A stretch of 64,000 nt of DNA, taken from NCBI RefSeq assembly GCF_963921235.1, contig NC_086097.1, positions 160,706,001 to 160,770,000 on the forward strand, written 5' to 3'. Within the stretch, counting starts at the first letter, position 1, and every line of letters begins with the position of its first letter. A program made the translations under genes and the position numbers. The notes beneath the pieces are model-generated. The model saw nothing but the letters and a program-made list of their open reading frames with translations. It was not told where the DNA came from and made no database searches. The stretch is from Mobula hypostoma. Lineage: Eukaryota. Positions 7,902 through 56,399 of the stretch are shown here, one piece after another.

Positions 7902-10900
7902 CTTTAAACTAGAATGGTTGGGGGGTGGGAATCAAATTAAAGCGGCTAGGTGTGAGGAGGTTAGTTCACAACAGAGGGATGGGAACCAGTGCAGAGAGAC
8001 AGAGGGGTGTAAAGTGAGCGTAGAAGCAAAAACTACAAAGGGGAAAAGTAAAAGTGGCAGGCCGACAAATCCAGGGCAAGCATTAAAAAGGGCTAAGAGA
8101 GTTGTAAAAGAGTGCCTGAAGGCTTTATGTGTCAATGCAAGGAGCATTCGTAATAAGGTGGATGAATTGAAAGTGCAGATTGTTATTAATGATTATGATA
8201 TAGTTGGGATCACAGAGACATGGCTCCAGGGTGACCAGGGATGGGAGCTCAACGTTCAGGGATATTCAATATTCAGGAGGGATAGACACGAAGGAAGGGG
8301 AGGTGGGGTGGCGTTGCTGGTTAAAAAAGAGATTAACGCAATAGAAAGGAAGGACATAAGCCGGGAAGATGTGGAATCGATATGGGTAGAGCTGCGTAAC
8401 ACTAAGGGGCGGAAGACGCTGGTGGGAGTTGTGTACAGGCCACCTAACAGTAGTAGTGAGGTCGGAGATGGTATTAAACAGGAAATTAGAAATGTGTGCA
8501 ATAAAGGAACAGCAGTTATAATGGGTGACTTCAATCTACATGTAGACTGGGTGAACCAAATTGGTAAAGGTGCTGAGGAAGAGGATTTCTTGGAATGTAT
8601 GCGGGATGGTTTTTTGAACCAACATGTCGAGGAACCGACTAGAGAGCAGGCTATTCTGGACTGGGTTTTGAGCAATGAGGAAGGGTTAATTAGCGATCTT
8701 GTCGTGAGAGGCCCCTTGGGTAAGAGTGACCATAATATGGTGGAATTCTTCATTAACATGGAGAGTGACGTAGTTAATTCAGAAACAAAGGTTCTGAACT
8801 TAAAGAGGGGTAACTTTGAAGGTATGAGACATGAATTAGCTAAGATAGACTGGCAAATGACACTTCAAGGATTGACGGTGGATATGCAATGGCAGGCATT
8901 TAAAGGTTGCATGGATGAACTACAACAATTGTTCATCCCAGTTTGGCAAAAGAATAAATCAAGGAAGGTAGTGCACCCGTGGCTGACAAGAGAAATTAGG
9001 GATAGTATCAATTCCAAAGAAGTAGCATACAAATTAGCCAGAGAAAGTGGCTCACCTGAGGACTGGGAGAAATTCAGAGTTCAGCAGAGGAGGACAAAGG
9101 GCTTAATTAGGAAGGGGAAAAAAGATTATGAGAGAAAACTGGCAGAGAACATAAAAACGGACTGTAAAAGCTTTTATAGATATGTAAAAAGGAAAAGACT
9201 GATAAAGACAAATGTAGGTCCCCTGCAAACAGAAACAGGTGAATTGATTATGGGGAGCAAGGACATGGCAGACCAATTGAATAATTACTTTGGTTCTGTC
9301 TTCACTAAGGAGGACATAAATAATCTTCCAGAAATAGTAAGGGACAGAGGGTCCAGTGAGATGGAGGAACTGAGCGAAATACATGTTAGTAGGGAAGTGG
9401 TGTTAGGTAAATTGAAGGGATTGAAGGCAGATAAATCCCCAGGGCCAGATGGTCTGCATCCCAGAGTGCTTAAGGAAGTGGCCCAAGAAATAGTGGATGC
9501 ATTAGTGATAATTTTTCAAAACTCGTTAGATTCTGGACTAGTTCCTGAGGATTGGAGGGTGGCTAATGTAACCCCACTTTTTAAAAAAGGAGGGAGAGAG
9601 AAACCGGGGAATTATAGGCCGGTTAGCCTAACGTCGGTGGTGGGGAAACTGCTGGAGTCAGTTATCAAGGATGTGATAACAGCACATTTGGAAAGCGGTG
9701 AAATGATCGGACAAAGTCAGCATGGATTTGTGAAAGGAAAATCATGTCTGACGAATCTCATAGAATTTTTTGAGGATGTAACTAGTAGAATGGATAGGGG
9801 AGAACCAGTGGATGTGGTATATTTGGATTTTCAAAAGGCTTTTGACAAGGTCCCACATAGGAGATTAGTGTGCAAACTTAAAGCACACGGTATTGGGGGT
9901 AAGGTATTGGTGTGGGTGGAGAATTGGTTAGCAGACAGGAAGCAAAGAGTGGGAATAAACGGGACCTTTTCAGAATGGCAGGCGGTGACTAGTGGGGTAC
10001 CGCAAGGCTCAGTGCTGGGACCCCAGTTGTTTACAATATATATTAATGACTTGGATGAGGGAATTAAATGCAGCATCTCCAAGTTTGCGGATGACACGAA
10101 GCTGGGTGGCAGTGTTAGCAGTGAGGAGGATGCTAAGAGGATGCAGGGTGACTTGGATAGGTTGGGTGAGTGGGCAAACTCATGGCAGATGCAATTTAAT
10201 GTGGATAAATGTGAAGTTATCCACTTTGGTGGCAAAAATAGGAAAACAGATTATTATCTGAATGGTGGCCGATTAGGAAAAGGGGAGGTGCAACGAGACC
10301 TGGGTGTCATTATACACCAGTCATTGAAAGTGGGCATGCAGGTACAGCAGGCGGTGAAAAAGGCGAACGGTATGCTGGCATTTATAGCGAGAGGATTCGA
10401 GTACAGGAGCAGGGAGGTACTACTGCAGTTGTACAAGGCCTTGGTGAGACCACACCTGGAGTATTGTGTGCAGTTTTGGTCCCCTAATCTGAGGAAAGAC
10501 ATCTTTGCCATAGAGGGAGTACAAAGAAGGTTCACCAGATTGATTCCTGGGATGGCAGGTCTTTCATATGAAGAAAGACTGGATGAACTGGGCTTGTACT
10601 CGTTGGAATTTAGAAGATTGAGGGGGGATCTGATTGAAACGTATAAGATCCTAAAGGGATTGGACAGGCTAGATGCAGGAAGATTGTTCCCGATGTTGGG
10701 GAGGTCTAGAACGAGGGGTCACAGTTTGAGGATAGAGGGGAAGCCTTTTAGGACCGAGGTTAGGAAAAACTTCTTCACACAGAGAGTGGTGAATCTGTGG
10801 AATTCTCTGCCACAGCAAACTGTTGAGGCCAGTTCATTAGCTATGTTTAAAAGGAAGTTAGATATGGCCCTTGTGGCTACAGGGGTCAGGGGGTATGGAG

Positions 10901-11002
10901 GGAAGGCTGGGTTCTGAGTTGGATGATCAGCCATGATCATAATAAATGGCGGTGCAGGCTCGAAGGGCCGAATGGCCTACTCCTGCACCTATTTTCTATG
11001 TT
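7902..11002 (+). mobile_element. Young CR1 LINE, 5'-truncated at the ORF1/ORF2 junction
   Basis: Intact ORF2, CR1 3' UTR with stem-loop and (TTTCTATG)n tail. 9-bp TSD TCTATGTGA at 7893-7901 and 11003-11011. Confidence 0.95.
7903..10917 (+). CDS. CR1 ORF2: APE endonuclease + reverse transcriptase (no in-frame ATG until 8521)
   Basis: Uninterrupted ~1000-codon frame with APE motifs (NARS, ITETW, YRPP, GDFN, SDH) and RT motifs (PGPDG, YRPVSL, QHGF, DFQKAFD, GVPQGSVLGP, FADD). The track start at 7918 is TTG. Confidence 0.95.
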   Translation, partial: FKLEWLGGGNQIKAARCEEVSSQQRDGNQCRETEGCKVSVEAKTTKGKSKSGRPTNPGQALKRAKRVVKECLKALCVNARSIRNKVDELKVQIVINDYDIVGITETWLQGDQGWELNVQGYSIFRRDRHEGRGGGVALLVKKEINAIERKDISREDVESIWVELRNTKGRKTLVGVVYRPPNSSSEVGDGIKQEIRNVCNKGTAVIMGDFNLHVDWVNQIGKGAEEEDFLECMRDGFLNQHVEEPTREQAILDWVLSNEEGLISDLVVRGPLGKSDHNMVEFFINMESDVVNSETKVLNLKRGNFEGMRHELAKIDWQMTLQGLTVDMQWQAFKGCMDELQQLFIPVWQKNKSRKVVHPWLTREIRDSINSKEVAYKLARESGSPEDWEKFRVQQRRTKGLIRKGKKDYERKLAENIKTDCKSFYRYVKRKRLIKTNVGPLQTETGELIMGSKDMADQLNNYFGSVFTKEDINNLPEIVRDRGSSEMEELSEIHVSREVVLGKLKGLKADKSPGPDGLHPRVLKEVAQEIVDALVIIFQNSLDSGLVPEDWRVANVTPLFKKGGREKPGNYRPVSLTSVVGKLLESVIKDVITAHLESGEMIGQSQHGFVKGKSCLTNLIEFFEDVTSRMDRGEPVDVVYLDFQKAFDKVPHRRLVCKLKAHGIGGKVLVWVENWLADRKQRVGINGTFSEWQAVTSGVPQGSVLGPQLFTIYINDLDEGIKCSISKFADDTKLGGSVSSEEDAKRMQGDLDRLGEWANSWQMQFNVDKCEVIHFGGKNRKTDYYLNGGRLGKGEVQRDLGVIIHQSLKVGMQVQQAVKKANGMLAFIARGFEYRSREVLLQLYKALVRPHLEYCVQFWSPNLRKDIFAIEGVQRRFTRLIPGMAGLSYEERLDELGLYSLEFRRLRGDLIETYKILKGLDRLDAGRLFPMLGRSRTRGHSLRIEGKPFRTEVRKNFFTQRVVNLWNSLPQQTVEASSLAMFKRKLDMALVATGVRGYGGKAGF

Positions 11003-19574: not shown

Positions 19575-19920
19575 ATTTAGAATCTCTACCCAAGGACCAC
19601 ACCTATCCTTCTCCATAATTATCATGAATCTAATAGCATTATGATCACTAGTTCCAAAGTGTTCCCCTACACACACTTCTTTCGCCTGCTCGGTCTCATT
19701 CACTAATATCAATCCAGTATCACACTCTCTCCAGTAGGAACCTCTATATATGGATTAGGAAACTTTCCTGAAGACATTTGACAAATTCTCTCCCATCTAG
19801 CCCTTTTACAGTATGAGAGTGCCAGTCAATATGTGAAAAGTTAAAAGCACCTGCTTTTAACACAACCTTATGTTTAGAACATAGAACAGTGCAGCATGGG
19901 AGCAGGCCTTACAACTCACA

Positions 19921-20077
19921 AACACGAGGAAATCTGCAGATGCTGGAATTTCAAGCAACACACATAAAAAATTGCTGGTAAACGCAGCAGGCCAGGCAGC
20001 ATCTATAGGAAGAAGTACAGTCGACATTTCAGGCCGAGACCCTTCACCTTGGCACCAGCAATTTTTATGTGTGTTGC
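19921..20077. mobile_element. Mini PLE insertion: terminus plus short inverted end
   Basis: Tail and HHR on minus, then inverted CACCAGCAATTTTTATGTGTGTTGC. Imperfect TSD TTACAACTCACAA/TGACAACTGACAA. Confidence 0.8.
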
Positions 20078-20556
20078 TGACAACTGACAATGTTGTACTG
20101 AGCCAAGTAAGTTAGTAATTAAATGGCTAACTAAACCCAAACACGAGGAATTCTGCAGATGCTGGAAATTCAAGCAACACACATCAAAGTTGCTGGTGAA
20201 CGCAGCAGGCCAGGCAGCATCTTTAGGAAGAGGTACAGTCGATGTTTCAGGCCGAGACCCTTTGTCAGGACTAACTGAAGAAAGGGCCAGTAAGGGATTT
20301 AAGAGGGGGAGGGGGAGATCCAAAATGATAGGAGAAGACAGGAGGGGGAGGGATGGAGCCAAGAACTGGACAGGTGATTGGCAAAAGGAGTATGAGAGGA
20401 TCATGGGACAGGAGGCCGAGGGAGAAGGAAAAGGGGGGAGGGAAGCCCAGAGGATGGGCAAGGGGTATAGTAAGAGGGACAGAGGGAGAAAAAGGAGAGA
20501 GAGAGAAAGAATGTGTGTATATAAATAACGGATGGGGTACGAGGGGGAGGTGGGGC

Positions 20557-21802
20557 ATTAGCAGAAGTTAGAGAAGTCAATGTTCATGCCATCAGGTTGG
20601 AGGCTCCCCAGACGGAATATAAGGTGTTATTCCTCCAACCTGAGTGTAGCTTCATCTTTACAGTAGAGGAGGCCGTGGATAGACATGTCAGAATGGGAAT
20701 GGGATGTGGAATTAAAATGTGTGGCCACTGGGAGATCCTGCTTTCTCTGGCAGACAGAGCGTAGGTGTTCAGCAAAGCGGTCTCCCAGTCTGCATCGGGT
20801 CTCGCCAATATACAGAAGGCCACATCGGGAGCACCAGACGCAGTATATCGCCCCAGCCGACTCACAGGTGAAGTGTCGCCTCACCTGGAAGGACTATCTG
20901 GGGCCCTGAATGGTGGTAAGGGAGGAAGTGTAAGGACATGTGTAGTACTTGTTCCGCTTACAAGGATAAGTGCCAGGAGGGAGATCAGTGGGGAGGGATA
21001 GGGGGGACGAATAGACAAGGGAGTCGCGTAGGGAGCGATCCTTGCGGAAAGCAGAGAGAGCGGGGGAGGGAAAGATGTGCTTAGTGGTGGGATCCAGTTG
21101 GAGGTGGCGGAAGTTATGGAGAATAATATGTTGGACCCAGAGGCTGGTGGGGTGGTAGGTGAGGACCAGAGTAACCCATTCCTAGTGGGGTGGCGGGAGG
21201 ATGGAGTGAGAGCAGATATGCGTGAAATGGGGGAGATGCGTTTGAGAGCAGAGTTGATGGTGCAGGAAGGGAAGCCCCTTTCTTTAAAAAAGGAGGACAT
21301 TTCCCTCATCCTGGAATGAAAAGCCTCATCCTGCGAGAAGATGCGGCAGAGATGGAGGAATTGCAAGAAGGGGATGGCATTTTTGCAAGAGACAGGGTGA
21401 GAAGAGGAATAGTCCAGATAGCTGTGAGAGTCAGTAGGCTTATAGTAGACATCAGTAGATAAGCTGTCTCCAGAGACAGAGACAGAAAGATCTAGAAAGG
21501 GGAGGGAGGTGTCGGAAATGGACCAGGTAAACTTGAGGGCAGGATGAAAGTTGGAGGCAAAGTTAATAAACTCAACGAGCTCAGCATGCTTGCAGGAAGC
21601 AGCGCCAATAACAAAAAGGCAGGCATAGCTCGGACCCATGCATGTGCCCATAGCTACACCTTTAGTTTGGAGGAAGTGGGAGGAGCCAAAGGAGAAATTA
21701 TTAAGAGTAAGGACTAATTCCGCTAGTCGGAGCAGAGTGGTGGTAGAGGGGAACTGGTTAGGTCTGGAATGCAAAAAGAAGCAGAGAGCTTTGAGACCTT
21801 CC
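20557..21802 (-). pseudogene. PLE RT/GIY-YIG ORF remnant lacking the YIDD segment
   Basis: GVAMGTCMGPSYACLFV|IGAASC, LPFLD, YYKPTD, IYCVWCSRCGLLYIGET. Frameshifts and stops present. Confidence 0.85.
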
Positions 21803-22930
21803 GGCTTTGTGGAGCAATCTATGTTCTGAGCCTATTCTGGTATCTGTCCCCCATTTTTCCTTCGCTACATCGACGACTGCATTGGCGCTGCTTCTTGCAC
21901 GCATGCTGAGCTTGTTGAGTTTATTAACTTTGCCTCCAACTTTCACCCTGCCCTCAAGTTTACCTGGTCCATTTCTGACACCTCCCTCCCCTTTCTAGAT
22001 CTTTCTGTCTCCATCTCTGGAGACAGCTTATCTACTGATGTCTACTATAAGCCTACCGACTCTCACAGCTATCTGGACTATTCCTCTTCTCACCCTGCCT
22101 CTTGCAAAAATGCCATCTCCTTCTCGCAATTCCTCCATCTCCGCCGCATCTGCTCTCAGGATGAGGCTTTTCATTCCAGGACGAGGGAGATGTCCTTTTT
22201 TAAAGAAAGGGGCTTCCCTTCCTCCACCATTAACTCTGCTCTCAAACGCATCTCCCCCATTTCACGCACATCTGCTCTCACTCCATCCTCCCGCTACCCC
22301 ACTAGGAATAGGGTTACCCTGGTCCTCACCTACCACCCCACCAGCCTCTGGGTCCAACATATTATTCTCCATAACTTCCGCCACCTCCAACTGGATCCCA
22401 CCACTAAGCACATCTTTCCCTCCCCCGCTCTCTCTGCTTTCCGCAAGGATCGCTCCCTACGCGACTCCCTTGTCTATTCGTCCCCCCTATCCCTCCCCAC
22501 TGATCTCCCTCCTGGCACTTATCCTTGTAAGCGGAACATGTGCTACACATGCTCTTACACTTCCTCCCTTACCACCATTCAGGGCCCCAGATAGTCCTTC
22601 CAGGTGAGGCGACACTTCACCTGTGAGTCAGCTGGGTTGATATACTGCGTCCGGTGCTCCTGATGTGGCCTTTTATATATTGGCGAGACCTGACGCAGAC
22701 TGGGAGATCGTTTTGCTGAACACCTACGCTCTGTCTGCCAGAGAAAGCAGGATCTCCCAGTGGCCACACATTTTAATTCCACATCCCATTCCCATTCTGA
22801 CATGTCTATCCATGGCCTCCTCTACTGTAAAGATGAAGCTACACTCAGGTTGGAGGAATAACACCTTATATTCCGTCTGGGGAGCCTCCAACCTGATGGC
22901 ATGAACATTGACTTCTCTAACTTCTGCTAA
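21803..22930 (+). pseudogene. PLE RT (YIDD) / Cys linker / GIY-YIG ORF remnant
   Basis: FLRYIDDCIG, LPFLD, YYKPTD, CKRNMCYTC linker (Neptune-like), IYCVRCS..LLYIGET, GMNIDFSNF. Several stops present. Confidence 0.85.
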
Positions 22931-22982
22931 TGCCCCACCTCCCCCTCGTACCCCATCCGTTATTTATATACACACATTCTTT

Positions 22983-22987
22983 CTCTC

Positions 22988-23041
<54 letters not shown>
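22983..23041 (+). repeat. (CT)n microsatellite in the PLE 3' region
   Basis: About 59 nt of near-perfect CT repeats. Confidence 0.95.
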
Positions 23042-23043
<2 letters not shown>

Positions 23044-24288
23044 TTTTCTCACTCTGTCCCTCTGACTATACCCCTTGCCCATTCTCTGGGTTCCCCCCGC
23101 TCCCTTTTCCTTCTCCCTGGGCCTCCTGTCCTATGATCCTCTCATACTCCTTTTGCCAATCACCTGTCCAGCTCTTGGCTGCATCCCTCCCCCTCCTGTC
23201 TTCTCCTATCATTTTGGATCTCCCCCTTCCCCCTCCCACTTTCAAATCTCTTACTAGCTCTTCCTTCAGTTAGTTCTGACGAAGGGTCTTGGCCTGAAAC
23301 ATCGACTGTACCTCTTCCTAGAGATGCTGCCTGGCCTGCTGCCTTCACCAGCAATTTTGATGTGTGTTGCTAACTAAACCTATTCTGCCTGCACAACTCA
23401 AATTCGTCCATTGTTCTCAGATTCCTGTGTCTATTTAAACATCTCTTTGAAGTTTGCCTCTACTAGTGCCCCAGGCAGTGTATTCAAGGCATTCTCCACC
23501 CTTTGTGTGTGTGTGGGGAGAAACGCAACCATCTTGCCTGTCTTGTCCCCTTTTGTAATTACCCTTATCACCTAAATGCATGTCCTCTGATATTTGAAAA
23601 TTCCAACCCTTGGAAAAAGATTTTGTCTGTCTATCTGTGCCTCCATTAATCTTATAAACCTCTGTCAGATCACCTCTCAACCTCTGCTGCTCCAGAGAAA
23701 ACAAACTAAGTTTGTCCAGCCTCTCATCATAGCACATGCCCTTTAATCCAGGCAACATATTGGTAAACCTCTTCTGCACCCTCTCCAAACCCTCGACATC
23801 CTTCAGATAATGGGGTGACCAGAACTGTATGCAATACTTACGATGTAGCCGCACTGGCGTTTCATAACTCTGCAACATAACTCCCTGACTTTTGAACTCT
23901 GTGCCTTGACTAATAAAACGAAGCATGTTGTATGCCTTCATAACTATCCTATCTATCTGTGTAACCACTTTCAAGAAGCATTGTACTATATCCCAAAATC
24001 CCTCTGCTCATCTACACTATTAAGGAACTTGTTTTTAACTGTTTACATTTGACCTATCAAGGTGCAACACTTCAAGTTTGCTGAGTTAAACTCCATTTGT
24101 CTCTGCCCATATCTGCAATTGATCTATATCCTGTTGTATTCTTTGCTGGTGATGTGGAGAGCATAGAAGGTTAGCAATCTTTGCATCATCTGCAAACTTA
24201 CTAACCTACCCATTGACATTTTCATGCAGACCACACAAACACCGGAGGTTCCAGTACAGATCCCTGGAAAACATCACTAATCACAGAA

Positions 24289-24442
24289 AAATGTACAGTT
24301 GTTGTTTCAGGCCAAAACCCTTCAGCAGGACTATTTTTTTTTCCATTGATGTTGCCTGGCCTGTTGAGTTCCACCAGCATTTTGTGTGTGTGTCTGTGTG
24401 TTGCTTGGATTTCCAGCATCTGCAGATTTTCTCTTGTTTGTG
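24289..24442. mobile_element. Mini PLE insertion (inverted HHR piece + plus-strand terminus)
   Basis: Perfect 13-bp TSD ACTAATCACAGAA at 24276-24288 and 24443-24455. Confidence 0.8.
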
Positions 24443-24992
24443 ACTAATCACAGAACTTCAGCCAAAAGAAGTAGCTTTGACCAGTAACCTTTCTTCTATG
24501 GGCTAGCCAGTTCTGAATCCAAGCGGTCAGTCCACCATAGATCCCGTGCATCTTGATCTTCTGAATGAGCCTCCCGTGAGGGACCTGGTCAAACGTCTTA
24601 CTAAAATCCATGTAAACACCACCCATAGCTCTACCTTCATTAATCACCCTTGTTACCTCATCAAAAAAAAACTCAATCAAGTTAGTAAGACACGAGTTGC
24701 TATGCTGGTTGTCCCTAATTAGGCTGTTGTTTTCCAAAACCTCAAATCTTAACCCTGAGAATTTCTCTATAACTTCATAACCACTGGCATGATTCCAAGA
24801 TTATTCCTGGTTCCTTTTCTTGGATAATGGAAGAACTTTACGTACTCACCATTCCTCTGGAACCTCATCTGTGGCTAGGAAGGAGAGCAAACTCTCTCCT
24901 GCCTGTCTCAGTAGCCTGGGATATATACCACCAGGCTCTCGGAACGTAACTAGTTTAATGCTCTTTAAGAGACCCAACATTATCTCTGTGGC

Positions 24993-34900: not shown

Positions 34901-35106
34901 TTGCGTCATCAATGGGGATGGGAGAGGTTCCAGAGGATTGGAGGTTTGCGGATGTTGTTCTATTATTCAAGAAAGGGAGTAGAGATAGCCCAGGAAATTA
35001 TAGACCTGTGAGCCTTACTTCAGTGGTTGGTAAGTTGATGGAGAACATCCTGAGAGGCAGGATTTATGAACATTTGGAGAAGCATAATATGATTAGGAAT
35101 AGTCAG

Positions 35107-35391
35107 GCAACACACATCAAAGTTGCTGGTGAACGCAGCAGGCCAGGCAGCATCTGTAGTGACGAAGGGTCTCGGCCTGAAACGTCGACTGCACCTCTTC
35201 CTACAGAAGTCCTGATGAAGGGTCTCGGCCTGAAACGTCGACTGCACCTCTTCCTACAGAGTCCTGACGAAGGGTCTCGGCCTGAAACGTCGACTGCACC
35301 TCTTCCTACAGATGCTGCCTGGCCTGCTGCGTTCTCCAGCAACTTTGATGTGTGTTGCTTGAATTTCCAGCATCTGCAGAATTCCTGTTGT
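35107..35391 (+). mobile_element. PLE-derived mini-element: inverted repeat enclosing three tandem HHR units
   Basis: Perfect 14-bp TSD TTAGGAATAGTCAG at 35093-35106 and 35392-35405. Inverted repeat at 35107-35159 / 35306-35358. Confidence 0.92.
35160..35311 (+). ncRNA. Tandem minimal hammerhead ribozyme array (two complete motifs, one 5'-clipped)
   Basis: GAAA boxes at 35179, 35232 and 35284. CTGATGA at 35212-35218 and CTGACGA at 35264-35270. Each unit has GAAACGTC-GACT. Confidence 0.8.
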
Positions 35392-35427
35392 TTAGGAATA
35401 GTCAGCATGGCTTTGTGAAAGGCAGGT

Positions 35428-36590
35428 CATAGAAACATAGAAAATGGGTGCAGGAGTAGGCCATTCGGCCCTTTGAGCCTGCTCCGCCATTTATTATGAT
35501 CATGGCTGATCATCCAACTCAGAACCCTGCACCAGCCTTCCCTCCATACCCCCTGATCCCCGTAGCCACAAGGGCCATATCTAACTCCCTCTTAAATATA
35601 GCCAATGAACCGGCCTCAACTGTTTCCTGTGGCAGAGAATTCCACAGATTCACCACTCTCTGTGTGAAGAAGTTTTTCCTAATCTCAGTCCTAAAAGGCT
35701 TCCCCTTTATCCTCAAACTGTGACCCCTCGTTCTGGACTTCCCCAACATCGGGAACAATCTTCCTGCATCTAGCCTGTCCAATCCCTTTAGGATTTTATA
35801 CGTTTCAATCAGATCCCCCCTCAATCTTCTAAATTCCAACGAGTACAAGCCTAGTTCATCCAGTCTTTCTTCATATGAAAGTCCTGCCATCCCAGGAATC
35901 AATCTGGTGAACCTTCTTTGTACTCTCTCTATGGCAAGGATGTCTTTCCTCAGATTAGGGGACCAAAACTGCACACAATACTCCAGGTGTGGTCTCACCA
36001 AGGCCTTGTACAACTGCAGTAGTACCTCCCTGCTCCTGTACTCGAATCCTCTTGCTATAAATGCCAGCATACCATTCGCCTTTTTCACTGCCTGCTGTAC
36101 CTGCATGCCCACTTTCAATGACTGGGGTATAATGACACCCAGGTCTCGTGGCACCTCCCCTTTTCCTAATCAGCCACCATTCAGATAATAATTTGTTTTC
36201 CTGTTTTTGCCACCAAAGTGGATAACTTCACATTTATCCACATTAAATTGCATCTGCCATGAATTTGCCCACTCACCCAACCTATCCAAGTCACCCTGCA
36301 TCCTTTTAGCATCCTCCTCACAGCTAACACTGCCGCCCAGCTTCGTGTCATCCGCAAACTTGGAGATGCTGCATTTAATTTCCTCATCCAAGTCATTAAT
36401 ATATATTGTAAACAACTGGGGTCCCAGCACTGAGCCTTGCGGTACCCCGCTAGTCACCGCCTGCCATTCTGAAAAGGTCCTGTTTATTCCCACTCTTTGC
36501 TTCCTGTCTGCTAACCAATTCTCTATCCACATCAATACCCTACCCCCAATACCGTGTGCTTTAAGTTTGCACACTAATCTCCTGTGTGGG
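35428..36590 (-). mobile_element. Young 5'-truncated CR1, same subfamily as 7902-11002
   Basis: Near-identical reverse complement of about 9852-11008, with one frameshift near 36160. Flanked by TCAT at 35427-35430 and 36606-36609. Confidence 0.95.
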
Positions 36591-54700: not shown

Positions 54701-54731
54701 AATATATACAAAATGAGGCATTGTTTATGGA

Positions 54732-56212
54732 CCAGGCCCAAAATGCTGGAGGAACTCAGCAGGCATGCAGTATCTGTGGAAAAGAGTACAGTCGACATTT
54801 CAGGCTGAGATCTTTCAGCAGGACTGAAGGTAAAGTAAGATGAGGAGTCGGAGTAAGAAGATGGGGGGAAGGGTGGAAGAAAGAAACACAAGGTGATAGG
54901 TGAAACCAGGGGCTGGAAGGTTTCAGGGTTGGTGACGGATGAAGTAAAGAGCTGGAAAGTTGATTGGTGAAAGAAATACAGGGCTGGAGATGACGGAATG
55001 TGATAGGAGAGGACAGAAGGCCATTGAAGAAAGAAAAGGGGAGGAGCAACAAAGGTAGGTGATGGACAGGTAAGGAAGTAAGCTGATAGAGGGGCATGGG
55101 GAATGGTGACGGGAAGTAAGGGAGAGATTACTGGAAGTTCAAGAAATTTATATTCATGCCATCAGGTTGGAGTCTACCTGGATGGAATAAAAGATGTTGT
55201 TCCTCCAACCTGAGTGTGGCCTCATCGCAGCGGTAGAGGAGAAGAAGGAGCGACATGTCGGATTGGAAATGGGAAGTGGAATTAAAATAGGTGGTCACTG
55301 AAAGATCCTGCTTTTTCTGGCAGATGAAGCATAGGTGCTTGGCAAAGCAGTCTCCTAATTTGCGTCAGATCTCACCAATATATAGGAGGCGACACCAAGA
55401 GTACCTGACACAATATATCACCTCAGCAGACTTACAGGTGAAGAGTTGCCTCACTTGGATGGACTGTTTGGGGCCCTGAATAGTAGTGAACCTGTTAGGG
55501 TCATATACGGTAAGCCTCAAACAGTTCTTTCAGCTGAGATGATACTTCACCCATGAGTCTTTTGGGGTCATCTACTGTACCTTCTCCCTCACTACCAGAA
55601 AAACTGGGATCTCCCAGTGACCACCCATTTTAATTCCACTTCCCATTCCTATTCTGACATGCCTGTCCTTGGCTTCCTCAACTGCCGCGAGGAGGCCACA
55701 CTTAGGTTGGAGGAGCAACACCTTGTATTCCGTCTGGATAGCCACCAACCTGATGGCATAAACATCGATTTCTCAAACTTTTGGTAATGCCTGCCCTCCC
55801 CTTCATCAATCCCCATCCCCTTTTCCCTCTCTCACCTTATCTCCTTACTTGCCCATTGCCTCCCTCTGGTGCTCCTCCCTCTTTTCTTCCATGGCCTTCT
55901 GTCTTCTCCTATCAGATTCCTCCTTCTCCAGCCCTGGAACTCTTTCTCCAATCAACTTTCCAGCTCTTCATTTCACCTTCCCACCCCCTCCTGGTTTCAT
56001 CTATCACCTTGTGTTTCCCCTTCCCCTCTCCTCCCTCCACCTTCTTACTCTGACTTCTCATCTTTTTTTCCTCCAGTCCTGTTGAAAGGTCTCAGCCCAA
56101 AACACCAACTGTTCACTCTTTTCCATAGTTGCTGCCTGGCCTGATGAGTTCCTCCAGCATTTTGTGTGTGTGTTGCCTGGATTTCCAGTGTCTACAGACT
56201 TTCTCTTGTTAA
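54732..56212. mobile_element. Older PLE insertion with inverted arms
   Basis: Minus arm about 54738-55490 and plus arm about 55515-56210, tail on the right only. TSD TGTTTATGGA at 54722-54731 and 56213-56222. Confidence 0.8.
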
Positions 56213-56399
56213 TGTTTATGGATCATTCATGGGTCTTCGGGCTCTTCCATCACCTCCCTGATGGTAGTAATGGAAAGATAGCATTTGCATGTACCAAAGC
56301 CTTGATAGCTTACTCCTACTCTACAGAAACATATTTAAAACCATTATCTTCCTGCTGTTCAGCAGTCTAGAAGTTGGATCAGTCTAGAAATTGTTCAGC

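Follow-up and report, generated by a model that had tools for sequence, protein, structure and literature searches.

A single head-to-head Penelope-like element (PLE) insertion of 3,231 bp was found at 20138–23368 of the window, the whole 64,000-nt stretch of DNA that was analysed. The insertion probably arose by twin priming on one RNA, after which, still at the time of insertion, the tip of the minus-arm cDNA was transferred to the first uncopied base. The junction suggests that two cDNAs met on one RNA, and it offers a clue to PLE integration that can be tested. The mechanism of tandem and inverted PLE insertions is named an open question by Frangieh et al. 2024 (PMC11167929) and in the available part of Craig et al. 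2021 (PMC8557442). The layout and the tail are already in print, and human L1 offers a close analogue.

Anatomy of the insertion and identity of the element

The window is eukaryotic, repeat-rich DNA with one Penelope-like family present in many copies. The segments of the insertion follow one another on the plus strand as C′ (minus), B (minus), X (plus) and C (plus). The insert consists of three segments (C′, B and X + C), and the stagger of the target ends is 12 nt. The coordinates are given in Table 1. The minus arm is without X, and the plus arm is without B and the tail; the outer RNA site marks the start of one arm, and the other arm begins 35 nt further in. Because each arm holds sequence that the other lacks, neither can have been copied from its partner and both would derive from RNA, provided that X was not lost later. 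Each of the two RT start sites also serves single copies that carry duplications of their own (4212 for the long site, 30645 for the short one).

Table 1. Features of the head-to-head PLE insertion, in window positions
Feature	Position	Strand	Remark
Left target-site duplication (TSD), 12 bp	20126..20137	+	Exact twin at 23369-23380; pair unique within window
3′ tail, 35 nt, on minus arm only; outer RT start site	20138..20172	-	35-38 nt, since 3 nt are common to plus-arm end and right duplication
Minus arm C′, from element 3′ end back to codon after YIDDC	20138..21609	-	55 differences/1,429 columns against plus arm
Zero-substitution run between arms, 189 nt; probable conversion	20486..20674	-	Aligned columns; (CT)n length unequal
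Zero-difference run between arms, 220 nt; probable arm-to-arm conversion	20950..21169	-	P = 0.005
Joint 1, minus-arm tip to 3′ edge of B, X skipped	21609..21610	.	In-register microhomology 0 nt; 5-nt match 3 nt off register
Segment B, 193 nt, inverted RT sequence directly upstream of X; third cDNA segment, hairpin spacer	21610..21802	-	
Joint 2, head-to-head switch of strand between 5′ end of B and start of X	21802..21803	.	Blunt; palindromic arms 2 nt only
Segment X, 78 nt = 26 codons, YIDD at 21866-21877	21803..21880	+	Plus arm only
Plus arm C, rest of RT, linker, GIY-YIG and 3′ UTR; end is inner, tail-less site	21881..23368	+	
Linker Cys motif C-x4-C-x2-C, Neptune/Nematis-type position	22526..22552	+	From translation
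Decayed GIY-YIG endonuclease, CxxC between GIY and YIG	22634..22840	+	Pfam PF01541 E 0.002, 18.7 bits against cut-off of 22.6
Hammerhead-core-like motif (CUGANGA...GAAAC)	23276..23300	+	Minus-arm copy mutated
Right target-site duplication	23369..23380	+	First 3 nt compatible with element too

The copy at this locus is dead and shows no sign of function. A (CT)n expansion at 22980–23041 is present in the plus arm only, where it is 48 nt longer than in the minus arm; the surrounding stretch is otherwise identical. About 35 bp left of the main left duplication, at 19911–20090, the same family has a further head-to-head insertion, 160 bp long, with a duplication of its own.

The plus-arm frame at 21803–22927, a single frame with internal stops, encodes YIDD and then GLIY-CxxC-YIG, with the Pfam match below the cut-off. 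The translation contains YCVRC...EHL...THF, in which two Cys lie between GIY and YIG and two His lie downstream. This is the CCHH arrangement by which the available part of PMC8557442 defines the GIY-YIG domain of endonuclease-bearing (EN+) PLEs, and the Neptune/Nematis linker motif is defined in the same source. The layout was also that of EN+ PLE insertions, with an inverted truncated copy, a one-sided tail of 30–40 nt and a TSD. Clusters of PF26215 were matched at 0.95–0.96 in an Atlas search. Judged from its sequence, the element is an endonuclease-bearing PLE with a Neptune/Nematis-type linker, a motif that does not split Neptune from Nematis. The hammerhead core pattern had four matches in the window against 0.43 expected in a pattern scan covering the core only. 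An Rfam search of 19800–24600 gave no match, and Pfam matched none of four stop-free fragments. Scans of viral contigs and metagenome contigs for the tail motif gave no match.

The junction at base level

The segment boundaries were read on a reference copy at 27.3–27.7 kb, in which B ends at 675, X occupies 676–753 and C starts at 754. The uninterrupted B-X-C order was present in both other window copies that span the site (27.3–27.7 kb, 79% alike, and 52.3–52.6 kb). The overlap and the gap between B and X were both 0 nt, and the inverted B ends exactly where the plus arm starts, at 21803. The chance of exact abutment was 0.1–0.4%, by choice of null. In-register microhomology was 0 nt at both joints, and the palindromic arms were 1 and 2 nt. 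X is 26 codons long, in frame and contains YIDD; that the skip keeps the frame and takes out YIDD looks incidental.

The first-pass annotation had reported that the minus arm omits an in-frame 78-nt YIDD block at 21609/21610. This was confirmed by the window copies and by family contigs. It had also reported that the plus arm opens at 21803 with the first base of the skipped block, which agrees with reference positions 675/676, and that 21610–21802, if flipped, is contiguous with 21803 onward, which the zero gap and overlap bear out. The 78-nt skip as a deletion of the whole subfamily, an objection that the annotation had raised itself, was ruled out: X is kept in both other spanning window copies, and family contigs run into X. 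X as a spliced intron was ruled out by the lack of GT-AG ends on either strand. For microhomology-guided priming, the one match found was 5 nt long and 3 nt out of register, and it was not relied on.

Family contigs were taken from 4 of 23 listed public runs (two organisms, two samples) and aligned to 20046–21880. The runs held 78,062–143,567 contigs each, counts that are dominated by family copies rather than by locus-specific pieces. Behind 21609, at least 6 contigs of run X2 and at least 11 of run X5 have loose ends that lead into the end of X, and at least one contig (X5) passes from 21610 directly into the start of X. Behind 21802, the loose ends (at least 9 contigs in X5 and at least 5 in X6) go on with a base other than that at 21803. 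In three of the four runs the two junction bins were the two lowest of the 29 element bins; in the fourth they ranked first and third from the bottom. Among the contigs listed, none bridges joint 1 or joint 2, and the support for the assembly is indirect, from the unique 12-bp duplication and from arms that differ at 55–59 sites.

The similarity between the two arms was investigated along their length. The arms differ at 55 of 1,429 columns (55–59 sites overall). The 189-nt run is the second-longest run of its kind, and it was matched in 0 of 20,000 permutations (P under 0.00005); the P value of the 220-nt run was 0.005. Control pairs (n = 4) had no such runs and were not patchy. Divergence outside the two runs was 55 in 1,020, or 5.4%, and that of independent young copies was 5.2–6.6%. 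The arms share derived sites at 12 of 1,192 positions, some of them doubtful and two stop codons included, with 5/359 inside the runs vs 7/833 outside (P 0.36). The zero-difference runs are probably the result of arm-to-arm conversion after insertion. The shared stop codons were rejected as proof of a single template, because conversion could produce them. Zero-difference tracts were absent from the older pair at 55 kb.

Similar junctions in the window and in related loci

The window holds seven head-to-head PLE insertions including the main locus, and reading by hand detected a duplication in six. No abutment was seen in three of them (15.9–17.1, 19.9–20.1 and 57.7–57.9 kb). A PLE insertion of 152 bp (24289–24440, within 24274–24455) has a 15-bp duplication and the classical twin-priming layout with an overlap of about 7–16 nt. 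Its inverted piece is target-primed, as in the related locus L013, and has its 3′ edge at the start of the direct piece, which bears the tail. These two layouts, which combine the classical twin-priming geometry with a target duplication, can hardly have been made by later deletion.

The insertion at 54722–56225 is older and has a 13-bp duplication. In its tail-bearing arm about 160 nt are skipped, and the landing point is about 6–10 nt inside the partner's end. The landing piece of 19 nt matched the homologous site at 18/19 positions, and the best of 300 shuffles reached 17; seven other matches of at least 15/19 were all at the homologous site. The landing piece is followed by 64 nt that are out of order and by a filler of 23 nt unmatched elsewhere in the window.

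A young head-to-head insertion at 35090–35403 contains three tandem units of 48–52 nt that span a hammerhead-like motif. Two of the units begin at the base of the first stem of the motif, and the arrangement resembles a miniature retrozyme-like multimer. The tandem units end 6–7 nt from the partner's end; a tandem template may explain this, and the case was excluded from the argument.

Related PLEs were collected by a protein search of metagenome contigs. The search gave 80 loci, with best segments 27–69% identical, and 76 were kept after 4 duplicates were dropped. An automated pass over the 76 loci yielded 27 head-to-head joints with 30 internal 3′ edges, misses and doubtful edges being kept. 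The distance windows were fixed after the data had been seen, and the references were single natural copies about 83–96% alike to the loci. Within −5 to +55 nt of the partner's 5′ end there were 6 of the 30 edges vs 1.31 expected (P 0.0013, post hoc window). Narrowing the window to −5 to +30 nt left 4/30 edges vs 0.75 expected (P 0.006, likewise post hoc), and −5 to +10 nt left 1/30 vs 0.31 expected (P 0.27). Outer target-primed edges were near in 4 of 15 cases (L005 at +18, L013 at +25 with a duplication, L015 at +22 and L025 at +55; P 0.002). Skip-type jumps were not enriched, with 2/15 within 55 nt (L049 at +9 and L069 at +46; 0.72 expected, P 0.16) and 1/15 within 10 nt (P 0.15). An exact 0-nt overlap was found in no other case, and 24 of the 30 edges miss.

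These results leave twin priming in PLEs well supported. The skip-and-land geometry recurs in L049 (5–9 nt) and L069 (46 nt); the subtype exists in distant families, with an enrichment that is not significant.

The 3′ end was longer on one arm in the six related insertions compared, clearly in four (50–64 nt) and less cleanly in L029 and L049. All five window insertions with both element ends (19.9, 20.1–23.4, 35.1, 54.7 and 57.7 kb) carry the tail on one arm, and the other arm stops about 35–50 nt earlier. The tailed arm extends further upstream in all five, but in L001, L009 and L033 the tailed arm is the shorter one. The observation that the tail-bearing arm is always the jumper (3/3: the main locus, the 55-kb copy and L049) was set aside as uninformative, because a visible skip must sit on the longer arm.

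More complex arrangements were also observed. L029:916-4501, a head-to-head PLE, has a duplication of 13 bp; its inverted arm makes at least three jumps, one of them backwards, and none ends at the partner's end. In L049:4848-6595, both arms skip alternately in a leap-frog pattern; this insertion sits in a minisatellite, so its duplication is ambiguous. A different repeat of the window forms inverted copies at 9852–10910 and 35532–36590 (1,059 nt, 96%, 24.6 kb apart), with further related copies near 36.8–37.5 and 53.5–54.2 kb.

Origin of the junction and comparison with known systems

In the preferred reading, both target ends would prime on the same RNA. The inner-primed cDNA, which becomes the plus arm, would run ahead and end at the start of X. 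The tail-primed cDNA, which becomes the minus arm, would trail behind it, either displacing the leader or reading a second RNA, and would detach 78 nt earlier. Its tip would resume at the first uncopied RNA base and copy 193 nt more, giving B. For this transfer, the tip may be handed over to the stalled polymerase, or it may jump end to end onto broken RNA. The cDNA ends would then be joined blunt and the gaps filled in, and patchy sequence exchange between the arms would follow later. Three sub-routes fit the junction equally: a hop or primer hand-over, an RNA break with an end-to-end jump, and invasion by a tip that blocks its partner. A fixed polymerase footprint is argued against because the skip lengths vary (78, ~125, ~160 and ~330 nt). 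The divergence of the arms stands against the preferred reading, since outside the homogenised runs they are as divergent (5.4%) as independent young copies. The small number of derived sites that the arms share, which show no tie to the runs, and the lack of enrichment of skip-type jumps count against it too.

The first-pass annotation had proposed a twin-priming-like origin, with two cDNAs made on one template and one of them jumping past the stalled end of the other. The origin is supported as one insertion event, marked by the TSD and the one-sided tail, by the geometry and by the recurrence of near-abutting edges; an L1-type target-DNA primer and microhomology fall away from it. On the single template, the geometry implies a common one for B and X; C and C′ may or may not come from the same RNA molecule. 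The jump past the stalled end fits the sequence, but only as one of the three sub-mechanisms that yield an identical sequence.

A broader proposal is that twin priming is programmed. A dimeric RT would prime both target ends at points 35 nt apart on one RNA, and the trailing cDNA would displace the leader over hundreds of bases. The stalled polymerase would keep its place on the RNA and swap primers, and the other cDNA would go on at the next base with no homology needed. This one process, common to distant PLE families, would yield nested, classical and skip-and-land copies. This proposal is tentative, and we regard it as possible rather than probable.

The rival readings were weighed against the same evidence. 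A nested head-to-head insertion, with B + X + C′ on the minus arm and X + C on the plus arm, could have been made by twin priming or fold-back and could later have lost 78 nt from the stem-loop edge in a hairpin. Arm conversion keeps such a later deletion of X viable: the arms interacted after insertion, as the 220- and 189-nt zero-difference runs indicate when set beside four controls that are not patchy. The geometry would be automatic, since the loop belongs to the longer arm and the stem begins at the plus-arm start, and end-joining is likewise compatible with the small overlaps in L049, L069 and the 55-kb copy, which have 1–3 nt of microhomology. However, joint 1 is without microhomology, and cruciform extrusion is disfavoured by a 193-nt spacer. 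The 55-kb junction, with its out-of-order 64-nt piece and 23-nt filler, is typical of template jumps, and an insertion-time route is available, since twin-primed PLE inserts with TSD are known (24.3 kb and L013). This reading is the main rival and is considered unlikely.

Coincidence, that is, an unrelated minus-arm deletion or template jump that ended by chance at the first base of the plus arm, gains from the frequency of internal jumps and deletions in PLE arms, with 13/15 jumps landing elsewhere, and from the selection of this case from many windows. Exact abutment has a P of 0.001–0.004, however, and near-abutting edges are enriched in unselected loci, so chance is a very unlikely explanation. 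Still less probable is a later micro-inversion of B alone, in which an original inverted C′ followed by B-X-C had B flipped in place. Flipping 21610–21802 restores a plain nested insertion, and a 5-nt inverted match exists between the minus-arm tip and the B/X boundary, but this match is 3 nt off the register of the real joint, and one breakpoint must still coincide exactly with the original arm junction. Mis-assembly of the repeat-rich inverted region is the least probable of these readings. PLE inverted structures are known to trouble assemblies, according to the available part of PMC8557442, and neither joint was bridged among the contigs listed. Yet the arms differ at 55–59 sites, including opposite decay of one CpG (21477–21478), the whole unit is framed by a unique 12-bp duplication, and similar joints occur in independent assemblies.

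The insertion was compared with published PLE insertions. Head-to-head insertions of endonuclease-bearing PLEs with an inverted pLTR, a one-sided tail and a TSD are known for Pen2a_Av and others from the available parts of Arkhipova et al. 2013 (PMC3846280) and PMC8557442. The main locus resembles the insertions described there in having an inverted 5′-truncated copy beside the main copy, a tail of 30–40 nt on one arm and a short TSD; unlike them, it has a third segment that resumes at the partner's end. Self-priming at junction palindromes was proposed for PLE inverted repeats in the part of PMC3846280 available. At the main locus, self-priming by fold-back is disfavoured: the palindromic arms are 1 and 2 nt, and each arm has sequence that the other lacks. 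Simple fold-back copying cannot have produced the junction unless the junction was altered later.

The Poseidon element of Anolis carolinensis (PAc) was studied in vitro by Frangieh et al. 2024 (PMC11167929), and both target strands were cleaved and extended. Two adjacent RNA start sites bound the tail, primer homology was unnecessary and a dimer was predicted (PMC11167929). The main text of that paper leaves the later steps open and does not discuss inverted insertions, displacement or template switching; strand displacement by a PLE RT is unreported there. Unlike PAc, the main-locus element has a Neptune/Nematis-type linker motif. The question becomes measurable as the distance from an internal cDNA start to the end of the partner arm, in PLE-rich long-read genomes or with PAc in vitro.

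L1 twin priming was reportedly described by Ostertag and Kazazian in 2001. In it, a target end serves as the internal primer, usually with microhomology, according to the available part of PMC2912911. In the proposed mechanism, two DNA ends prime one RNA and a TSD is formed, as in L1 twin priming (available parts of PMC2912911 and of bioRxiv 10.1101/2024.08.27.596794). The inverted 3′ edge abuts the start of the forward segment in both systems; in the L1 cases described in these parts small overlaps or gaps are seen, and the main locus has 0 nt. Unlike the L1 insertions described there, B would be primed by the tip of a 1,472-nt PLE arm, and the target end lies at 20137. The main locus further differs from them in that 1.47 kb of the 3′ end was copied twice, poly(A) is lacking and neither joint has microhomology.

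A closer analogue is the L1 "twin priming and 5′ switching" of Zumalave et al. (bioRxiv 10.1101/2024.08.27.596794), for which the part available gives 20 cases among 3,598 truncated L1 insertions. In these cases, as that part presents them, a growing cDNA moves to RNA further upstream that is still uncopied and goes on from there. The main locus is alike in that the start of B is the first base left uncopied by the plus arm, the transfer itself being inferred. The difference from them is that there the internally primed cDNA switches and adds an internal inversion, and here the tail-primed cDNA would switch, after both arms had covered the same 3′ region. The main locus resembles twin priming with a 5′ switch and is not L1-type by its defining primer. 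In the open-licence PMC and bioRxiv literature (subscription papers being outside the scope), no paper was found that applies twin priming or 5′ switching to PLEs or that reports such a PLE junction.

The main locus has a single strand switch only. Forward, inverted and forward pieces follow one another in L073:3094-3594, and the forward pieces overlap by about 23 nt, an arrangement like the internal inversion of L1 twin priming with switching.
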